In this document: positions 10,879 to 39,073 of the stretch, one piece after another
How the letters are laid out: each line of letters begins with the position of its first letter
How positions within the stretch are numbered: the first letter of the stretch is position 1
IMG/VR virus record: IMGVR_UViG_3300031993_000004
Coordinates: 128,001-192,000 of that record
Strand: one strand, 5' to 3'
DNA: 64,000 nt
From: a virus
Taxonomy: Duplodnaviria > Caudoviricetes
Made by a program: the position numbers and the translations under genes
Notes under the pieces: generated by a model
What the model saw: the letters and a program-made list of their open reading frames with translations, nothing else
Database searches by the model: none
What the model was told of the DNA's origin: nothing

Positions 10879-12324
10879 ATGAAGATCGAGAAAACGACAA
10901 CGGGTCTGATCATCAAAGACCCGACAACTGAAGTCAAGAAAAAATGTTTGCAATACTTCACACTTCAGAAGCCACTTCGTGAATTCTTCATTTACAGCGG
11001 TAATGACCCAGATACAAAACCAACTCTGGGTCATGAACACGATGTGATTTATATCACTTCCGGTTTCCTGAAGATCAACGATCCTGCAATCATGTCATTG
11101 CGAGTGGATTCAACCAAATCGTATCTGACACCGAAACAGATTACACTTGAGATGAATCGCGAACCTCGTTCCAAGTTGCAAGAAGATTGCATCAAACTGG
11201 CGACAACATCGACCTCTCCAAAGGTCACGATGGAACTCAAGCCCGGAACAGGAAAGACGTTTATTGCGCTTTATTCTGCATCAAAGCTTGGGTTGAAGCC
11301 TTTGATTGTTGCACCTACATCATTGCTGAAAAATCAATGGATTGATAATATCCTTGAACTTGGCATTGATCGTAATGACATTGCGACGAAGATATGGGAT
11401 TCTCCACATAAGAAAGTGTGTGTTGTCACGATTTCTTCATTGGAAGGTGCTGTCCGCGATGATTGGAATGGCCTCATGAAGACAATGGATTCTGCAGGAT
11501 TCGGAATCAAAGTTATCGACGAAGCACATCTTCATTTGAAAGGAATGCTGAAGTTTGATGCATTGTGCAATATCAAGCACAATTGGTATCTGTCTGCGAC
11601 GCTCGGACGTTCTGATCCTTCTGAAGACAGAATCCTGAATCGTGCGCTTGCTGATGCAACCAGATTTATCGGCAACTCTGCATATGAGGAATACCAGAAA
11701 GAATATGTCCAGGTTTATCTTCAGGACATCTTCTACTTCCCGTCTTCAAAACTCTGTGAGAAATGCTTCAAGTATGGATCAAAGGGTTTGATTCGTTCCT
11801 CATACTATCGCATGCTGATGTCATATCGTAATGGTGAACCTTTTATTCGGAACATCGTGAATGTCATTAAACGTGCAAAAGGAATCATCAACTATGACGG
11901 AAAGATCTTGGTGCTTGTTCCATTGCTCGATATCATTGATCGTGTTCTCCAAGCAATGAAAGCTGATCCGTTCTTCAGGAATTACACGATTGCCGGTGTT
12001 GATGGTTCTATGCCATTGGCAAAACGTCGTGAAGCAATGGAATCCAACTTCATTCTTTCAACATCCTTGTCGATGGGTACTGGTGTTGACGTTCAGAATC
12101 TTGGTGTTGTTGTGAACTTCGACCAATATTCTTCGTCAATTATTGGCGAGCAGATCTTCGGACGTTTGAGAGACCGCGGTAAAGAGACGTACTATGTCGA
12201 CGTCTGTGATCATGTCAAGCAGGCTTCCATGTTAAGACGATGGGGTGAGAAGCGTCGTCTGCTGATTCCATATTATCCTGGCGCAAAACGGGATATGAAA
12301 AAATTTCCGAACATCTTCTGTTGA
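10879..12324 (+). CDS. Superfamily 2 DEAH helicase (UvsW-like)
   Basis: Motif I PGTGKT, Ia IVAPT, II DEAH, III SAT, V GTGVDV and VI QIFGRLR. Confidence 0.9.
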   Translation: MKIEKTTTGLIIKDPTTEVKKKCLQYFTLQKPLREFFIYSGNDPDTKPTLGHEHDVIYITSGFLKINDPAIMSLRVDSTKSYLTPKQITLEMNREPRSKLQEDCIKLATTSTSPKVTMELKPGTGKTFIALYSASKLGLKPLIVAPTSLLKNQWIDNILELGIDRNDIATKIWDSPHKKVCVVTISSLEGAVRDDWNGLMKTMDSAGFGIKVIDEAHLHLKGMLKFDALCNIKHNWYLSATLGRSDPSEDRILNRALADATRFIGNSAYEEYQKEYVQVYLQDIFYFPSSKLCEKCFKYGSKGLIRSSYYRMLMSYRNGEPFIRNIVNVIKRAKGIINYDGKILVLVPLLDIIDRVLQAMKADPFFRNYTIAGVDGSMPLAKRREAMESNFILSTSLSMGTGVDVQNLGVVVNFDQYSSSIIGEQIFGRLRDRGKETYYVDVCDHVKQASMLRRWGEKRRLLIPYYPGAKRDMKKFPNIFC

Positions 12325-12334
12325 ACGGAATAAT

Positions 12335-12460
12335 AATCCGGAATGCTCCCTTCTCCTCACACAGGGATTGGCCTCCCTGTTTCGCCGAAGCGGGTCGGCG
12401 ACTACGATGTGTTTTCCTCCTTGAGAACATGCTTACACCATTCGAAAAGCATTCCGGATT
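12335..12460 (+). ncRNA. Candidate structured RNA (four-way junction) in the helicase 3' region
   Basis: A perfect 13-bp closing stem (12335-12347/12448-12460) encloses three hairpins: 12361-12380, 12382-12401 and 12408-12431. Confidence 0.55.
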
Positions 12461-12462
12461 TT

Positions 12463-12513
12463 GATATTTATCGTGCGGGGCGAAAGCCCCGCACTAAAAT
12501 ATCATTTCTTTTT
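12463..12513 (+). terminator. Terminator, GNRA-capped
   Basis: GTGCGGGGC-gaaa-GCCCCGCAC with an extended AT stem and a TTTCTTTTT tail. Lies between the convergent helicase and terminase genes. Confidence 0.75.
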
Positions 12514-27359: not shown

Positions 27360-28319
27360 TTAAAGTCCGAGTTCGTCTCTGGTTTTAACGGGATATGATT
27401 CCATATATTCATCAGTCGCAGTCTTTGTTGACATGTCCAGGTTTGTTATCCTCGCACTTGGGACCGGATATTCGGATAACACATCGCCGTCTTTGTTGAC
27501 AGTAACAAATTCGCGGTCCGATTCATCATCTCCGATAACGACATACGTTGTCGGCTCTTCGGATTCGAATGCAGTTGTTGATGCGACACTGCCCTCGTCG
27601 ATGATATTGTTCAGAACAGATGCCGCTTGATCAAGACTGACCGTCGGATAATTGTCGGCAACAACCGGCTCGCTGTCTTGCGTCATAGACGGCACTTTGA
27701 AAATATCGTCCAACATGGAACGACCAACAGAGTACACATCTGTCTTTGTAGCAGGTCCAGCCTGTGCTCCAGGTGCAACAGCGCCAGCAGCTTGCTGCTG
27801 TTTGATTTTCAATTCCGCAATCGTCTTCTTCACGTTAATCTGCTTCTCCTGAATTGCCATGAGTGTTGACCGAGCTGATGTCAATGCTTGCATCGCAGCA
27901 ATGTCATCTTCATTCAAACCAAACTTGCCTTTGTCGTTATAGCTTTCCATAGCTTTCCGTTCAAAGACTTTGATCAGTTTGGCTTGATCAGCAGCCATTG
28001 TTTTCAATGCAGCAACATCGGCAGTGAAAATCTTGTTCGGTTCAACCTTTTCCTGAAGCGGTCCAAGTTCCATTCCTGCCTGGAGTGCATTCATGACATC
28101 TGACACACCGCCCCATTGTCCAACATACGGACGAATGTATCCATCCATATTAGGGTTGAACTTTGGTCGTGTTGTAAAAGATGCATGACGTTGGAGCCAT
28201 GCGTTCGGATCCGTTTGAGCAAGATCCCAAGCCGGTTGTGGTTGTTGATGATATTCATCAGCCGCTTGCTCAAATGAACGCACTTGATTCAGTGTATTGA
28301 ATGCGTCCAACATACTCAT
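27360..28319 (-). CDS. Hypothetical protein (about 319 aa, coiled-coil middle)
   Basis: RBS AAAGGAG before ATG 28319. The longer start in the ORF track crosses a terminator. Confidence 0.8.
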   Translation of the reverse strand: MSMLDAFNTLNQVRSFEQAADEYHQQPQPAWDLAQTDPNAWLQRHASFTTRPKFNPNMDGYIRPYVGQWGGVSDVMNALQAGMELGPLQEKVEPNKIFTADVAALKTMAADQAKLIKVFERKAMESYNDKGKFGLNEDDIAAMQALTSARSTLMAIQEKQINVKKTIAELKIKQQQAAGAVAPGAQAGPATKTDVYSVGRSMLDDIFKVPSMTQDSEPVVADNYPTVSLDQAASVLNNIIDEGSVASTTAFESEEPTTYVVIGDDESDREFVTVNKDGDVLSEYPVPSARITNLDMSTKTATDEYMESYPVKTRDELGL

Positions 28320-28383
28320 ACTAATCATCTCCTTTAAATAGTATATGAGATTACTCTCAATACTGTAGAGTTTAAAAGCGACA

Positions 28384-28420
28384 GCATAATTACGTGGGGC
28401 ACAAGGCCCCACGTAATGCT
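28384..28420 (-). terminator. Terminator after RNAP beta' N-half
   Basis: 12-bp stem ATTACGTGGGGC/GCCCCACGTAAT. Confidence 0.75.
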
Positions 28421-28425
28421 TTTCA

Positions 28426-29931
28426 TTATTCGAGTTTCGTAAGTCCATACAGACCATTCAAACATTCCTTTTCAATTGGGAATGCCGCGGTCAAATCCGT
28501 ACGAACACAATAGATTTTAGAGTACATCATTTCTTCTGCTTGTTTATTCGCTTCATCAGACCAGATTCCTGTACTCTTGACAGTATCACCATCATAGTCA
28601 CCACCGATGTTCACCAATCGAGCATTCGACATCTGGAGAACGTCAATGAATTGTGTTGATACTTTTGCATGGTTCATTTCCGGATCAACAACGGGATATG
28701 TGTCATACTGTTCTCCATTGAACTGAACCGGAATTGTTGTGTTTGTTGACAGCACATGGACCTTTGTAAAGAATGCACCGTACAAGTCGCCAATCGGATA
28801 TCGCACGGTGTAAACATGTCGGTCGGCCTTCACTGTTGCCGCGTAGCAGCATAGATAAATGACGTCAGTTAATGTCAGTGGCCTGGAAATGGACTCATTG
28901 GTTTGTGTATTTACAGCGTTGAATATAATTGGGGTCTTATTTTCTGGATCCGCATACAAAATACGGAATCTGCTTCCCGGATTCAGCATGAAGATCTTGA
29001 TCAGATCATCGATTTCTCTGTCATCATAGATGTTATCAATATCAGAACGTTTGATTTGATCTGGATTTGAATGGAATGTGATGATGTTATCATATGAAAG
29101 GAATTGTTTCATATTGAACTTCACAAATGGACGGAACATTGAAAGAATTGACATCAATGGATATCCGGTGCGGAATATACCAACCGGTGTATTATCCGTT
29201 CGATATGATGGTGCTGAGATAACATTACGAACAGTACCAATAGTATTCTTTGCCAACAGGTTTCTTTGGAAGTATCCATTCTTCGTTCCACACAATTTAT
29301 GAATGTATGAATAGATTTCAATGACGGTATCTTGAATCTGGTTGTGTGCTTTGTGAACTGTCGTCGTGACATGCGTTGTGACGGACTTGAAACCAATGAG
29401 CTTCATATAAATAGTATTCAGCTCGGATTTGATTTGACGCCCATTGCGCATACCAGTAGGACGCATAGCGGGTGGCAATACGAGAACCTTATCGACAAAA
29501 AGAAGACGTTTTGGTGTCCGTGTCAGAATCTTAATGTTCTCATCGCGTTTTGTCTTCAGTGTTTTTGCGATATCGATTTGATCCCAAATGTTATACAAAT
29601 CGACAAAACCACAGTATTTACCACTTTCATTTTCAACAAGCACGCCATCAATCAAATCACATCTGATTTCGGCATATGCAAGTTTGCGGATGATACCACC
29701 GGAACGAAGAATGATTGTCTTTGCAATATGCGGATTGAACACATGAATTGGCAACTTGATATATCCGCATCTGTACTTCTGTTCTTCTTCTGTTTGACCA
29801 AAGATTTCTTCTGAGAACAGGCCAAACGGGTTATATTGGTTCGTTGATCGATATATCTGAGGTGATGTAACTTCTTGCCAGTTATTCACCTTAATTGCAT
29901 AATCCATATCATAGAGACCCTGAATTTGCAT
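28426..29931 (-). CDS. RNA polymerase beta' subunit, N-terminal half with catalytic motif (probably virion RNAP)
   Basis: Contains GLFSEEIFG, CGYIKLP, VLPPAMRP, KNGYFQRNLLAK, RYP and the catalytic GGDYDGD. ATG 29931 has RBS AAGGAGG and is preceded by the late-type motif. Confidence 0.92.
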   Translation of the reverse strand: MQIQGLYDMDYAIKVNNWQEVTSPQIYRSTNQYNPFGLFSEEIFGQTEEEQKYRCGYIKLPIHVFNPHIAKTIILRSGGIIRKLAYAEIRCDLIDGVLVENESGKYCGFVDLYNIWDQIDIAKTLKTKRDENIKILTRTPKRLLFVDKVLVLPPAMRPTGMRNGRQIKSELNTIYMKLIGFKSVTTHVTTTVHKAHNQIQDTVIEIYSYIHKLCGTKNGYFQRNLLAKNTIGTVRNVISAPSYRTDNTPVGIFRTGYPLMSILSMFRPFVKFNMKQFLSYDNIITFHSNPDQIKRSDIDNIYDDREIDDLIKIFMLNPGSRFRILYADPENKTPIIFNAVNTQTNESISRPLTLTDVIYLCCYAATVKADRHVYTVRYPIGDLYGAFFTKVHVLSTNTTIPVQFNGEQYDTYPVVDPEMNHAKVSTQFIDVLQMSNARLVNIGGDYDGDTVKSTGIWSDEANKQAEEMMYSKIYCVRTDLTAAFPIEKECLNGLYGLTKLE

Positions 29932-29957: not shown

Positions 29958-29972
29958 TTACAAAAACGTTTT
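29958..29972 (-). promoter_or_regulatory. Late-type promoter motif AAAACG-N6-TAA
   Basis: AAAACG-tttttg-TAA. The same motif occurs at 39074 (+) and 55753 (-). Confidence 0.5.
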
Positions 29973-29978
29973 TAAGAT

Positions 29979-30135
29979 AAAAGATAAGTTGCGGGGCCGA
30001 AGCCCCGCAATAAAATGAGATTAGGGACGCTGTGCTGGATAACACAGCGTGATGACGGAGAATACAAATGAATTACAATGGATCAAAATCAATCATCGTC
30101 CGGCGAAAGACGATTTGGTTCATTTGCATGAACTT
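29979..30135 (-). ncRNA. Candidate small RNA (about 155 nt) with its own terminator
   Basis: A minus-oriented cUUCGg terminator (29989-30010) has no upstream minus-strand gene. Hairpins TGCAAATGAA/TTCATTTGTA, ATCGTC/GACGAT and ACGCTGTG/CACAGCGT lie upstream of it. A GACA-N6-TAA promoter-like motif sits at 30134-30146. Confidence 0.55.
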
Positions 30136-30157
30136 ATTTTTTTGTCTGCTAAATAGA

Positions 30158-30172
30158 TATATTATTTTCGCG
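30158..30172 (+). promoter_or_regulatory. Early-type promoter for the gyrB/RNAP beta' operon
   Basis: TATATTAT-tttcgc-G. Confidence 0.65.
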
Positions 30173-30246
30173 TCATGGGAAGTGTATAATCTTTAGCTTC
30201 TCTGAACAAACAAATACAATTTTGTTGCGAAAGGCGGGTTTTTATC

Positions 30247-32583
30247 ATGGGTATGATGATGAAAGACGACAAAATGGATATCATCACAAATGATATCGAA
30301 CGCATCCGAAAACGACCAACAATGATCGTTGGTTTTGTTGGATCGAAAGGTATTCTGCATTTGTGTAAAGAGATCATAAACAACAATGCTGACGAGTGTT
30401 TCAAGAAAGAATCACCTGGTAATACGATTCGAATTGAAATCACTCCATCTTATATTATATCAGAGGATAATGGACGCGGTCTCCCGACAAATCTTCTGCG
30501 AACAATTCATGAGACGTCCCAGGCTGGTTCTAATATGACACGTGCACACGGTGCATCTGCTGGTGAAAATGGAATTGGCACAACTGCATTCACTGCGTTG
30601 TCTAGTGAATTGATCGTCACAACGTTTCGTCCACAAGAAAAGAAGAAACTGACGATTCATTACAAAGAAGGCAAACTGGTTGAAGAGATCTTGGAGGATT
30701 ACAAGGGAAAGGAGCATGGTCTCCGCACATTCTTCAAACCGTCCAAGAAGATCATGAATGAATCAGAGATCCCGGTTGATGATCTGGTTGCATGGATCAA
30801 AGGTTTCGAGTATACGCTGGATCCTGCCATAAAGGTATTCTATACTGTCAATGGCGAAGAGCATCAACTTGAGCACAAAACAATTGACCGGTATTTCCGT
30901 GAAGTGATTCCGGATGATAAGTTCATGTCAACTCCGATTCGGATTGAGTGTGATGAAGGAAAACTTCCCGAAACTGTCCAAGGTGTCACATATTCGCGCA
31001 TGTTCAAGATTGATGCGGCCTTTATGTATGCAACTCCAGACTATCGCGGAGAAGATTTGCGTCAATCGTGGATGAATATGATTCAGACTGCTGAAGGCGG
31101 TTCGCATGTCAACGGTGTTGTGAACGGTCTGATCAAATATCTGACGGAACGTGTTATCGCAAAGAAGAAAGGTCTCGAGGATGATGACCTTCGTCGTGAT
31201 ATTCTGATGCATCTGAATGTTGCTGTAAAGGCAGAATGTGACTTTGCGAATATCTTTGCATCACAGGAGAAATCCAAAGTTGATTCCAGAGCACTTGCAA
31301 CCGCGATTTCGAATGCAGTGTATCAGAAGTTGTGTGACATGAATCAGACGAAGCTTGCTGATTTCGTTGATATTGTCATTCAGAATAATCGTGTTCGAAA
31401 AGAAGGAGAAAAAGTCCGTAATATTTCGGCTGAATCCAAGAAGAAACAATGGTCGAAACCTGACTCATATCTACCATGTGCTTCTGTGAAAACGCCGCAA
31501 CCGAAAGAGCTGTTCACCGTTGAGGGTAACTCTGCAGCGAGTGGTATCAATAGTGCACGAAATGCAACGTTCCAAGCTGTTCTGCTGTTCAGAGGTAAAT
31601 CTCCGAATGTTTGGGATCTGACGCTGGAGGAAGCATTGCGTTCAAATGTATGGCGCGATCTTGTCATCGTGCTCGGATGTGGAATTGGTTCAACGTTTGA
31701 CATCAAGAAACTGAATTTCGATAAGATCATTATCGCAACGGATGCTGACGTTGATGGATATCATATCCGTGTTGAGATCTGCACATTCTTCCTGAAGTTC
31801 TATCCGGAGATTATCGCAGCAGGTAAGCTGTATATCGCAGAACCGCCGCTGTACAAACTTGCGGTTGGGAAGCAGATCTCATATGTCGCAACACAGACGG
31901 AGTATATCAACGAATGCATCCGTTCTGTTGGTAACGTTCAGCTGCATTTTCCAGAAGGCGTTGTTGCGGATTCTACCGGAAAGAGATTTATCGAGGAAGC
32001 ATTCACATATCTTGCGGATTTGACAGATGTGTCGGAACACCTGTCTGTCAATCGTTATCTGCTCGAGCATATTGCACATGGCATGATGATCTCTGGTTCC
32101 ACAGATCAGTTCATTGAAGATATCGTGGATTGGCTGCGTTCTCTTGTTAAGATATTCCCAGAACTGGGATATGACGAGAAATCCCATCAGATCTTTGCAA
32201 CAATTGATCTGACCGACCAGGTGGTTGTTGTAGATGAATCGTTGTACAAGCGTCTTGTTCCAATCATCCAGATTCAGCAGAAATATGGTATGATTGTTCA
32301 GTATGACACAACAACTTGCACGCTTGCTAGATTCTTTGAAGAAATTCAAAGAAAGTATCCAGTAATCAAAGACCGTTACAAAGGTCTTGCGACGTCTGAT
32401 CCGAGAGTGCTTCGTGAAATTGTCACGGATCCAAGAACAAGACATATCTTCCGAGTCGATGCGTCTGATATCAACACCATGAAGACATACGACATGCTTG
32501 TTGGTAAAGGAAAAGAAGCTGTGAAGGCTCGTAAAGAAATGATAATGAATTTCCAATGGAAGCCATCCGATATAGATACATAA
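30247..32583 (+). CDS. gyrB: Type IIA topoisomerase B subunit (GyrB-like)
   Basis: IRKRPTMIVG, GHKL motifs EIINNNADE, EDNGRGLP and GENGIG, EGGSHVNG, TOPRIM motifs VEGNSA and ATDADVDGYHI, PPLY and RYKGL. Confidence 0.93.
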   Translation: MGMMMKDDKMDIITNDIERIRKRPTMIVGFVGSKGILHLCKEIINNNADECFKKESPGNTIRIEITPSYIISEDNGRGLPTNLLRTIHETSQAGSNMTRAHGASAGENGIGTTAFTALSSELIVTTFRPQEKKKLTIHYKEGKLVEEILEDYKGKEHGLRTFFKPSKKIMNESEIPVDDLVAWIKGFEYTLDPAIKVFYTVNGEEHQLEHKTIDRYFREVIPDDKFMSTPIRIECDEGKLPETVQGVTYSRMFKIDAAFMYATPDYRGEDLRQSWMNMIQTAEGGSHVNGVVNGLIKYLTERVIAKKKGLEDDDLRRDILMHLNVAVKAECDFANIFASQEKSKVDSRALATAISNAVYQKLCDMNQTKLADFVDIVIQNNRVRKEGEKVRNISAESKKKQWSKPDSYLPCASVKTPQPKELFTVEGNSAASGINSARNATFQAVLLFRGKSPNVWDLTLEEALRSNVWRDLVIVLGCGIGSTFDIKKLNFDKIIIATDADVDGYHIRVEICTFFLKFYPEIIAAGKLYIAEPPLYKLAVGKQISYVATQTEYINECIRSVGNVQLHFPEGVVADSTGKRFIEEAFTYLADLTDVSEHLSVNRYLLEHIAHGMMISGSTDQFIEDIVDWLRSLVKIFPELGYDEKSHQIFATIDLTDQVVVVDESLYKRLVPIIQIQQKYGMIVQYDTTTCTLARFFEEIQRKYPVIKDRYKGLATSDPRVLREIVTDPRTRHIFRVDASDINTMKTYDMLVGKGKEAVKARKEMIMNFQWKPSDIDT

Positions 32584-38839: not shown

Positions 38840-39018
38840 TCGCAGTGGGCATATTGTATGAAGCAGTGATTGGTGGATTTGACCCGAAAAAATATAAGAC
38901 GGTCGATCGCCAACATCAAACATCTACCGAACCTCGTGGAGACGGGGAGGATCCGCGGGGTTCGAAACATATGGGGGCGAACGGGAGTGGGGAGGCACCC
39001 GTTCGTTCGGGGAGATAA
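38836..39018 (+). CDS. Small hypothetical protein (60 aa)
   Basis: GTGA overlap with the upstream stop, AAGGA RBS, ends at a terminator. Confidence 0.4.
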   Translation: MIAVGILYEAVIGGFDPKKYKTVDRQHQTSTEPRGDGEDPRGSKHMGANGSGEAPVRSGR

Positions 39019-39055
39019 TGCATGGGGGCGCTTCGGCGCCCCCGCATTATTTTTT
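39015..39055 (+). terminator. Intrinsic terminator, cUUCGg loop
   Basis: GGGGGCGC-ttcg-GCGCCCCC with an extension and a T tract. Confidence 0.85.
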
Positions 39056-39073
39056 CTTCTATTATAGTATCGA

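Follow-up and report, generated by a model that had tools for sequence, protein, structure and literature searches.

A predicted structured and probably trans-acting small RNA between the gyrB and RNA polymerase beta' genes in a clade of AR9-like jumbo phages

We propose that the minus strand between the DNA gyrase B (gyrB) gene and an RNA polymerase (RNAP) beta' gene of an uncultured AR9-like jumbo phage carries a stand-alone gene for a non-coding RNA of ~155 nt that is structured and probably acts in trans. The DNA analyzed, referred to here as the window, is a 64,000-nt stretch that corresponds to bases 128001-192000 of a single 277,583-bp virus genome from IMG/VR, which is rated complete; positions are those of the window unless a record is named. 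The RNA family appears to be limited to a single uncultured clade of such phages, and the probability of this reading as a whole is put at about 0.6. It is considered highly likely that the RNA gene is genuine, conserved and distinct from beta'. The inferred transcript has a length of ~156 nt and extends on the minus strand from a start at A30135 to the end of a U-rich tail (29980-30135), as judged from its fold and its homologs. An earlier note on this DNA had put forward an independent minus-strand small RNA of ~155 nt, and this proposal is supported by a promoter-like box, hairpins, a C-rich strand and a terminator that are kept in ~20 relatives. The same note had regarded the terminator as an orphan, which it is not, as it closes a self-contained minus-strand unit that runs from ~30135 to 29980.

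Fold and conservation of the RNA unit

The elements of the unit follow the same order in every member of the family: AA, hairpin H1, hairpin H2, hairpin H2b, a pyrimidine tract, hairpin H3, an A/U-rich linker and hairpin H4. H1 (30118-30133, minus strand) is the 5' hairpin GUUCAU-GCAA-AUGAAC, which begins 2 nt past the inferred 5' end. Its conserved stem is identical in most relatives, the loop has 2-6 nt, and the H1 motif is found nowhere else in the genome. The minimum-energy fold of this sequence, and of this sequence only, features a long stem of 11 bp, UGCAAAUGAA/UUCAUUUGUA, and enforcing H1 costs 2.2 kcal/mol. The earlier note had given this long stem together with the GUUCAU-loop-AUGAAC hairpin as its alternative; the long stem is present but unique to this sequence, and it is the alternative that the relatives keep. 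H2 (30095-30114, minus strand) pairs AUCGUCU with GGACGAU around a loop that contains GCC(G), and its inner AUCGUC/GACGAU hairpin (30114-30095) is present as had been described. The H2 stem has 6-12 bp and at least 8 different sequences among the relatives, which are always complementary, and the loop reads YGCCG in most members. H2b is a variable middle hairpin located between H2 and the C-rich tract.

The single-stranded pyrimidine tract UUCUCCGUCAUC (30051-30062, minus strand) contains CUCC at 30060-30057. The earlier note had listed a single-stranded tract here, and the folding calculations agree, with a predicted unpaired probability of 0.92. A CUCC or UCCUC-type motif is found in 18 of 18 members, the full CCUCC in 13 of the 18, and the motif has a predicted unpaired probability of 0.8-1.0 in 13 of 18. 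In L047 and L055 it is located within the H2 loop, beside long CU-rich single strands. The diverged homologs L108 and L114/L126 also carry CCUCC, and L123 carries CCUC. H3 (30027-30050, minus strand) is a 10-bp hairpin, ACGCUGUGUU/AGCACAGCGU, whose core ACGCUGUG/CACAGCGU had likewise been recognized. A hairpin of 7-12 bp occupies this position in every relative, with sequences that are unrelated and cannot be aligned even between close relatives; in the subgroup that can be aligned, 4 of 7 pairs are changed on both sides.

H4 (29989-30010, minus strand) is an intrinsic terminator with a 9-bp stem (30010-30002/29997-29989), a UUCG loop and 7 G-C pairs. It is followed by a U-rich tail (29988-29974), in which 10 of 15 nt are U and which exists on the minus strand alone; the plus-strand side is A-rich. 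These features agree with the hairpin, loop and minus-only tail that had been reported at 29989-30010. H4 was picked up by a consensus terminator scan, in which the region has 11 terminator-like sites compared with 4.0 ± 2.1 in shuffles. The G+C-rich stem-loop with its directly adjoining U-rich tract ends the homologous unit in 18 of 18 relatives, and the position of H4 is kept in all relatives with compensatory changes in the stem. RNA sequencing of AR9 has revealed strong termination at predicted intrinsic terminators (PMC5312081). A strong 12-bp terminator-like hairpin is also located at 28389-28417 (plus strand), in the overlap of the minus-strand genes 27360-28457 and 28426-29931, and it has a near-identical 25-nt core in common with the RNA terminator.

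The 168-nt stretch that contains the unit folds at -52.3 kcal/mol with z = -5.8, and 0 of 200 shuffles are equally stable; across runs the z of the RNA ranges from -5.8 to -6.6. All 18 members fold better than shuffles, with full-length z values of -3.8 to -10.1 and values of -2.1 to -5.5 for the core without H1 and H4. An Rfam search gave no match at the gathering score over the whole window and no relevant match over the locus with E values up to 10, and a search for tRNA and tmRNA found none.

The earlier note had called for an analysis of covariation across relatives, and it was carried out. Formal pair counts were restricted to a six-member subgroup, A4, which aligns unambiguously, because the family-wide MAFFT alignments (A2, A3, A6, A7 and A9) lose the register of H2 and H3, whose stem and loop lengths differ. 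A covariance model built from A4 (R1) matched other members weakly (E = 3e-6 to 0.3), with false matches mixed in and L016 missed, and it was not used for counting. Within A4, 88.9% of cells are paired, compared with 33-43% when the partners are slid, and 7 pairs are changed on both sides, compared with 2.8 ± 1.2 in shuffles (0 of 500 reach 7). Further compensatory pairs are found in other subgroups. The conserved helices hold several U.G/G.U pairs, as in the H1 variants AUGAGC and GUGAAC, and because on the plus strand they would turn into C.A mismatches, the conserved structure is read as that of the minus-strand RNA. In the closest relative the RNA body is ~64% identical, compared with 83.7% for beta' DNA; by these comparisons the sequence drifts and the fold is held.

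The relatives were collected in three ways. A query with the beta' protein led to 6 viral contigs, and all 6 carry the same intergenic module between gyrB and beta'. Motif scans of viral and metagenome contigs yielded 18 distinct sequences of 138-206 nt. A protein-profile search yielded 26 loci, of which 13 carry the canonical module (L108 and L115 are new among them), 7 carry recognizably diverged versions (L121/L122, L123, L124, L125 and L114/L126) and 6 carry no RNA module. The 18 distinct sequences together with L108 and L115 make up the ~20 relatives. Beta' identity is 54-95% and gyrB identity 48-87% over the 18 members, and gyrB is the divergent upstream neighbor in all of them, at a distance of 118-157 nt in 15 and ~1.2 kb in 3. 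The AR9 and LPJP1 records feature neither the H1 motif nor gyrB-beta' synteny, and the RNA family was not found on unrelated DNA. Among the diverged loci, L125 (2240-2480) has an RNA-like unit at the equivalent place with a different 5' hairpin, AAUCCAAU/AUUGGAUU, and the shorter unit upstream of beta' in L114 and L126 consists of a hairpin with a GCGCC loop, followed by CCUCC and then a terminator.

One set of motif matches, named group B, was rejected as family members. It comprises ~20 near-identical marine-type contigs (L011, L013, L014, L021-L026, L028-L032, L034-L039 and L041), which share a 26-nt string of AACA-N6-TAAG and a perfect GTTCAT-TA-ATGAAC palindrome (for example L022:2711-2736). 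The string is probably a chance match, because it forms part of the 3' end of a prohead protease gene and closely precedes the next gene of a T4-like head module.

Promoter-like box and its neighbors

The RNA unit is headed by a promoter-like box, GACA-N6-TA (30135-30146, minus strand), which resembles the AR9 late consensus and whose last A (30135) is taken as the start. The earlier note had likened a longer form, GACA-N6-TAA at 30146-30134, to the late motif, and this form is present; the box can also be read as GACA-N6-TAAG (30146-30133). In AR9 the early consensus is AAATATATATTAT-N6-G and the late consensus, that of the non-virion RNAP, is AACA-N6-TA/G, with the last base as the start site (PMC5312081). 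The box thus shares ACA, the 6-nt spacer and TA with the AR9 late promoter, and it differs in its first base, which is G here and G, A or T among the relatives. The phage's own late genes use AACG-N6-TAA, with which the box has AC, the spacing and TAA in common. This late class has 15 sites in the genome, 12 of them intergenic; 11 are located within 150 nt before a start codon on the same strand, 9 of those at 23-30 nt. Of the 26 sites that make up the early class of the genome, TATATTAT-N6-G, 16 are intergenic.

NACA-N6-TAAG is kept in all relatives with the canonical H1 except L108, and in the canonical members ACA, the spacing and TAA are constant. In nearly every canonical member, the GUUCAU arm of H1 comes after the box. 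In L108 the clade's canonical AACG-N6-TAAG stands ahead of H1 at the position of the box, and the early box is absent. This AACG form is the best internal evidence that the RNA box is a late-type promoter. The AACA-N6-TA form was also counted genome-wide: it has 68 sites, compared with 132 and 125 for the N5 and N7 spacings, and AACA-N6-TAA occurs once. Because it is about half as frequent as the forms with the other spacings, its scarcity suggests a live signal, with spurious promoters selected against.

Back to back with the RNA box is an early-type promoter, TATATTAT-N6-G (30158-30172, plus strand), which serves the gyrB/topoisomerase gene and agrees with both the AR9 early consensus and the early class of this genome. 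The distance from the reverse complement of this early box to the ACA of the RNA box is fixed at 12 nt in 12 of 13 protein-defined relatives, and the inferred RNA start and the early gyrB start are divergent and 36 bp apart. The 12-nt spacing is tighter than that of the other divergent early/late pairs in these genomes (28-30 nt). Just past the early start site, the gyrB leader contains a perfect TATAAT (30180-30188, plus strand, within TGTATAATC), which is kept in the closer relatives. On the other side of the RNA unit, beta' features a late promoter of its own, AACG-N6-TAA (29958-29970, minus strand), which is one of the 15 sites of the class and is located 27 nt ahead of the ATG. This promoter is kept in relatives where beta' directly succeeds the RNA unit.

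Proposed action, targets and alternative explanations

In the proposed mechanism, the phage's own RNAP would start near A30135 at the AR9-late-type box GACA-N6-TA, and transcription would stop at the intrinsic terminator (30010-29989). As the comparisons show, its fold comprises H1 at the 5' end, H4 as the terminator and two to three hairpins in between (H2, H2b and H3), with CUCC/CCUCC left unpaired between H2b and H3. By pairing with the purine-rich Shine-Dalgarno regions of mRNAs, from the host or the phage, this C-rich tract would block ribosome loading, and the hairpins would lend stability and specificity. CCUCC is exactly complementary to GGAGG, which the phage uses in its ribosome-binding sites. 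On account of this exposed complementary CUCC/CCUCC and the precedent of C-rich RNAs in Bacillota, a trans-acting translation repressor that is expressed late is the function that we infer and favor. Anti-Shine-Dalgarno pairing as the specific mode of action is offered more tentatively, by analogy.

Target searches were made on phage mRNAs. The best of 258 ribosome-binding regions in the phage's own genome belongs to a NADAR-domain gene (G000:C1:22194-22976 of the genome record, outside the window; Pfam E = 1e-26), which pairs with the single-stranded tract of the RNA over 23 bp with a 2-nt bulge at -28.6 kcal/mol, a value reached by 2.6% of shuffles (p ~0.03). A comparative scan covered four genomes (this one and three relatives), with 128-159 reciprocal best hits per pair and ortholog groups required in at least 3 of the 4. 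A further but weak candidate is a beta'-like gene at G000:C1:16921-18303 (L009:28-1410), which features Pfam Rpb1 domain 2 and a NADFDGD motif. Its start and ribosome-binding region pair at 15 of 16 positions with RNA positions 63-78, and in the closest relative two positions are changed in each partner and remain complementary; the pairing energies are unremarkable, with z = -1.4 and -0.9. The genomes G004 and G005 are incomplete and without this gene. One extension of the repressor reading is that the RNA, made late by the phage's non-canonical multisubunit RNAP, feeds back by throttling the translation of a polymerase subunit or mimics the 3' end of 16S rRNA to re-programme late translation, which is rather improbable.

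Two further partners were tried and rejected. A GGGGAGG hairpin array at the end of an early operon (38870-39056, plus strand), considered as a partner or sponge, has no counterpart in G001 and G003, and all that G002 offers is a loose GGGGAG cluster at another place. The gyrB leader, considered as a target of the H2 loop, offers only a 7-bp match (pairing read by eye) that is not kept in relatives.

Several observations weigh against the trans-acting repressor and its late promoter. The GACA form of the box does not belong to an enriched class: ACA-N6-TAAG has one intergenic occurrence genome-wide, which is the RNA box itself, and because it occurs once, the GACA variant is not validated as a promoter class in this genome. 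The ends, abundance and timing of the RNA are all inferred. The CCUCC of the L020 group has a predicted unpaired probability of only 0.4-0.5. Nearly all strong ribosome-binding sites of the phage itself would pair with a tract as short as CUCC, which leaves specificity unexplained. No conserved mRNA target was significant among the phage transcripts scanned. The earlier note had called for target prediction on the CU-rich tract, and this gave no conserved target: the best combined z over the ribosome-binding regions of the four genomes, -2.5, is at chance level, and a search for complementarity of at least 10 nt over whole mRNAs gave scattered matches, none above chance. The NADAR gene was rejected as a family target, as it is absent from 2 of 3 near-complete relatives (G001 and G003) and its pairing in G002 is ordinary. 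The near-invariant H1 stem, which has U.G variants in few members, suggests contact with a protein or a polymerase, which the pairing model does not need.

Simple pairing does not explain the H1 stem and the GCC loop, and a protein-binding or decoy role is kept open. Here a protein from the phage or the host would be bound or titrated by the H1 stem, by the GCC loop of H2 or by a hairpin together with CCUCC, an arrangement like the 16S rRNA 3' end, the partners considered being a polymerase, a nuclease or a ribosome-directed factor. An invariant stem with a variable loop is typical of sequence-specific contact, YGCCG is retained in the H2 loop, and the phage scans found no conserved mRNA target, all of which such a role would accommodate. 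However, H1 is replaced in distant homologs, by another hairpin in L125 and by a variant rich in wobble pairs in L124, so that the H1 sequence is not universally required, GGA-type CsrA motifs are absent and the partner protein is only hypothetical; on balance this role is unlikely, if still conceivable. A coding function is barely credible. The candidates are a 42-codon open reading frame on the plus strand (30068-30196), which has GGAG 7 nt before its ATG, or a short minus-strand frame that starts from H1. The GGAG is the complement of the conserved CUCC, the plus-strand frame would traverse both promoters, no Shine-Dalgarno sequence precedes any sense-strand frame of the RNA unit, and no conserved open reading frame was found on either strand, since the open frames vary in start, frame and length among relatives.

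The remaining alternatives would make the transcript, or the terminator, an accessory to a neighboring gene. The earlier note had offered as its second option a switchable leader that attenuates read-through into beta', in which transcripts from the upstream box would enter beta' when an alternative fold overrides the terminator. Such a leader would fit the position of beta', which follows the RNA unit on the same strand at +186 to +238 in 9 members (this genome and 8 relatives), and the alternative 11-bp stem. A dedicated leader or attenuator is nevertheless disfavored, and highly improbable, because beta' has its own promoter, as shown by the canonical AACG-N6-TAA between the terminator and the beta' start, and because in 7 of the 16 informative relatives 0.4-1.6 kb of other genes separate the terminator from beta'. 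In the members inspected this intervening DNA opens with an early-type promoter right after the terminator. Beta' would not depend on a promoter upstream of the terminator. A conserved fold in competition with the terminator stem was not found, and the sole alternative stem competes with H1 and is unconserved. It is very unlikely that the locus is instead a promoter-occlusion switch, in which late initiation 36 bp from the early gyrB start shuts the early promoter and the RNA is largely a by-product. The fixed 12-nt spacing of the boxes, unique in the genome for its tightness, would suit a switch of this kind, but a by-product would not retain four or five hairpins by compensatory change or an unpaired C-rich tract; in addition, the RNA is kept in L108 without the early box, and gyrB is ~1.2 kb distant in L047, L055 and L050. 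The terminator could also be a mere insulator, which shields the beta' promoter from stray antisense transcription from the gyrB side and leaves the upstream hairpins as DNA-level features or meaningless. The terminator does lie immediately upstream of that promoter, but the promoter-like box at a fixed distance, the strand-specific U.G pairs, the covarying helices and the way in which the whole module moves intact as the neighboring genes change make this extremely unlikely.

Known small RNAs, the phage genome and flanking genes

The stand-alone, trans-acting RNA proposed here represents a new RNA family, although of a type already known, namely regulatory small RNAs that phages encode and that carry an anti-Shine-Dalgarno motif. 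In Staphylococcus aureus, RsaE and further Rsa RNAs use an unpaired UCCC motif to bind Shine-Dalgarno regions and block initiation complexes, and RsaE is also found in Bacillaceae (PMC2790875). The phage RNA is like the RsaE class in being a short and apparently independent transcript with an intrinsic terminator, several hairpins and a conserved unpaired C-rich motif. Unlike that class, it is encoded by a jumbo phage of virulent type, apparently has a promoter for the phage polymerase, and features no sequence or structure homology to RsaE as judged by Rfam. Its motif is CCUCC, the exact anti-Shine-Dalgarno core, compared with UCCC in RsaE. Among the phage mRNAs, the search for the pairing with ribosome-binding regions that characterizes RsaE gave no conserved target, and the best match in a single genome is that of the NADAR gene, which is not conserved.

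Non-coding transcripts have also been described from jumbo phages. Antisense RNAs and no comparable intergenic RNA were reported for AR9 (PMC5312081). For phiKZ, a single small RNA of 75 nt was predicted and was not confirmed by northern blot, and the same study expects phage-encoded small RNAs late in infection (PMC8244752). The RNA described here would share with these transcripts its synthesis by a phage multisubunit RNAP from a phage promoter. Unlike the AR9 antisense RNAs and the single-genome prediction in phiKZ, it is intergenic and structured and has ~20 homologs with covariation. A second candidate RNA is located at 12324-12512 of the window, between a late-type promoter and a terminator; it contains CCUCC tracts as well as UUUCGCCG, a string that resembles the H2 loop of the 30135-29980 RNA. 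It differs by a long closing stem, the absence of H1 and a canonical AACG-N6-TAA promoter.

The phiKZ study, which used differential RNA sequencing (dRNA-seq), pointed out that small RNAs have been predicted in few virulent phages and that scarce homologs limit target prediction (PMC8244752). Knowledge of regulatory RNAs in virulent and jumbo phages is still scant, and the present family features ~20 natural variants, a clear fold, a defined motif and a dedicated variant of a phage-polymerase promoter that stands back to back with an early promoter. It provides an entry point to the RNA-based timing of translation in AR9-like phages, which do not rely on host RNAP, to the question of which promoters the non-virion polymerase accepts, and to whether a phage carries several anti-Shine-Dalgarno RNAs, as this genome seems to have at least two. 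The family is a candidate for Rfam and for the annotation of metagenomic jumbo phages.

The downstream neighbor of the RNA is the RNAP beta' N-terminal-like gene (28426-29931, minus strand; PHROG 2986, E = 5e-58). Its start is the ATG at 29931, which is preceded by a GGAGGG ribosome-binding site; a longer frame that begins with GTG and reaches 30045 was rejected as an artefact. The protein has ~30% identity to homologs from Listeria phage LPJP1 and the Bacillus phages AR9, PBS1 and Goe21 (tblastn), and the AR9 homolog is g145, annotated as the N-terminal part of the virion RNAP beta' subunit. A DNA search found no nucleotide match among GenBank phages. The source is an uncultured AR9-like jumbo phage, because its beta' is ~30% identical to the AR9/LPJP1 group and it has no nucleotide match among GenBank phages. 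The divergent upstream neighbor encodes DNA gyrase B, or topoisomerase II large subunit (30247-32583, plus strand; Pfam DNA_gyraseB, Toprim and GyrB_C; PHROG 543). The earlier note had pointed out that the flanks diverge and that no protein gene therefore ends at the hairpin, and this is borne out by the two gene starts (29931 on the minus strand and 30247 on the plus strand). The two ends of the contig (G000:C1:75-130 and 277411-277470) share an identical divergent early/late promoter pair and gene start, which points to a terminal repeat or to a complete genome that is circularly permuted.

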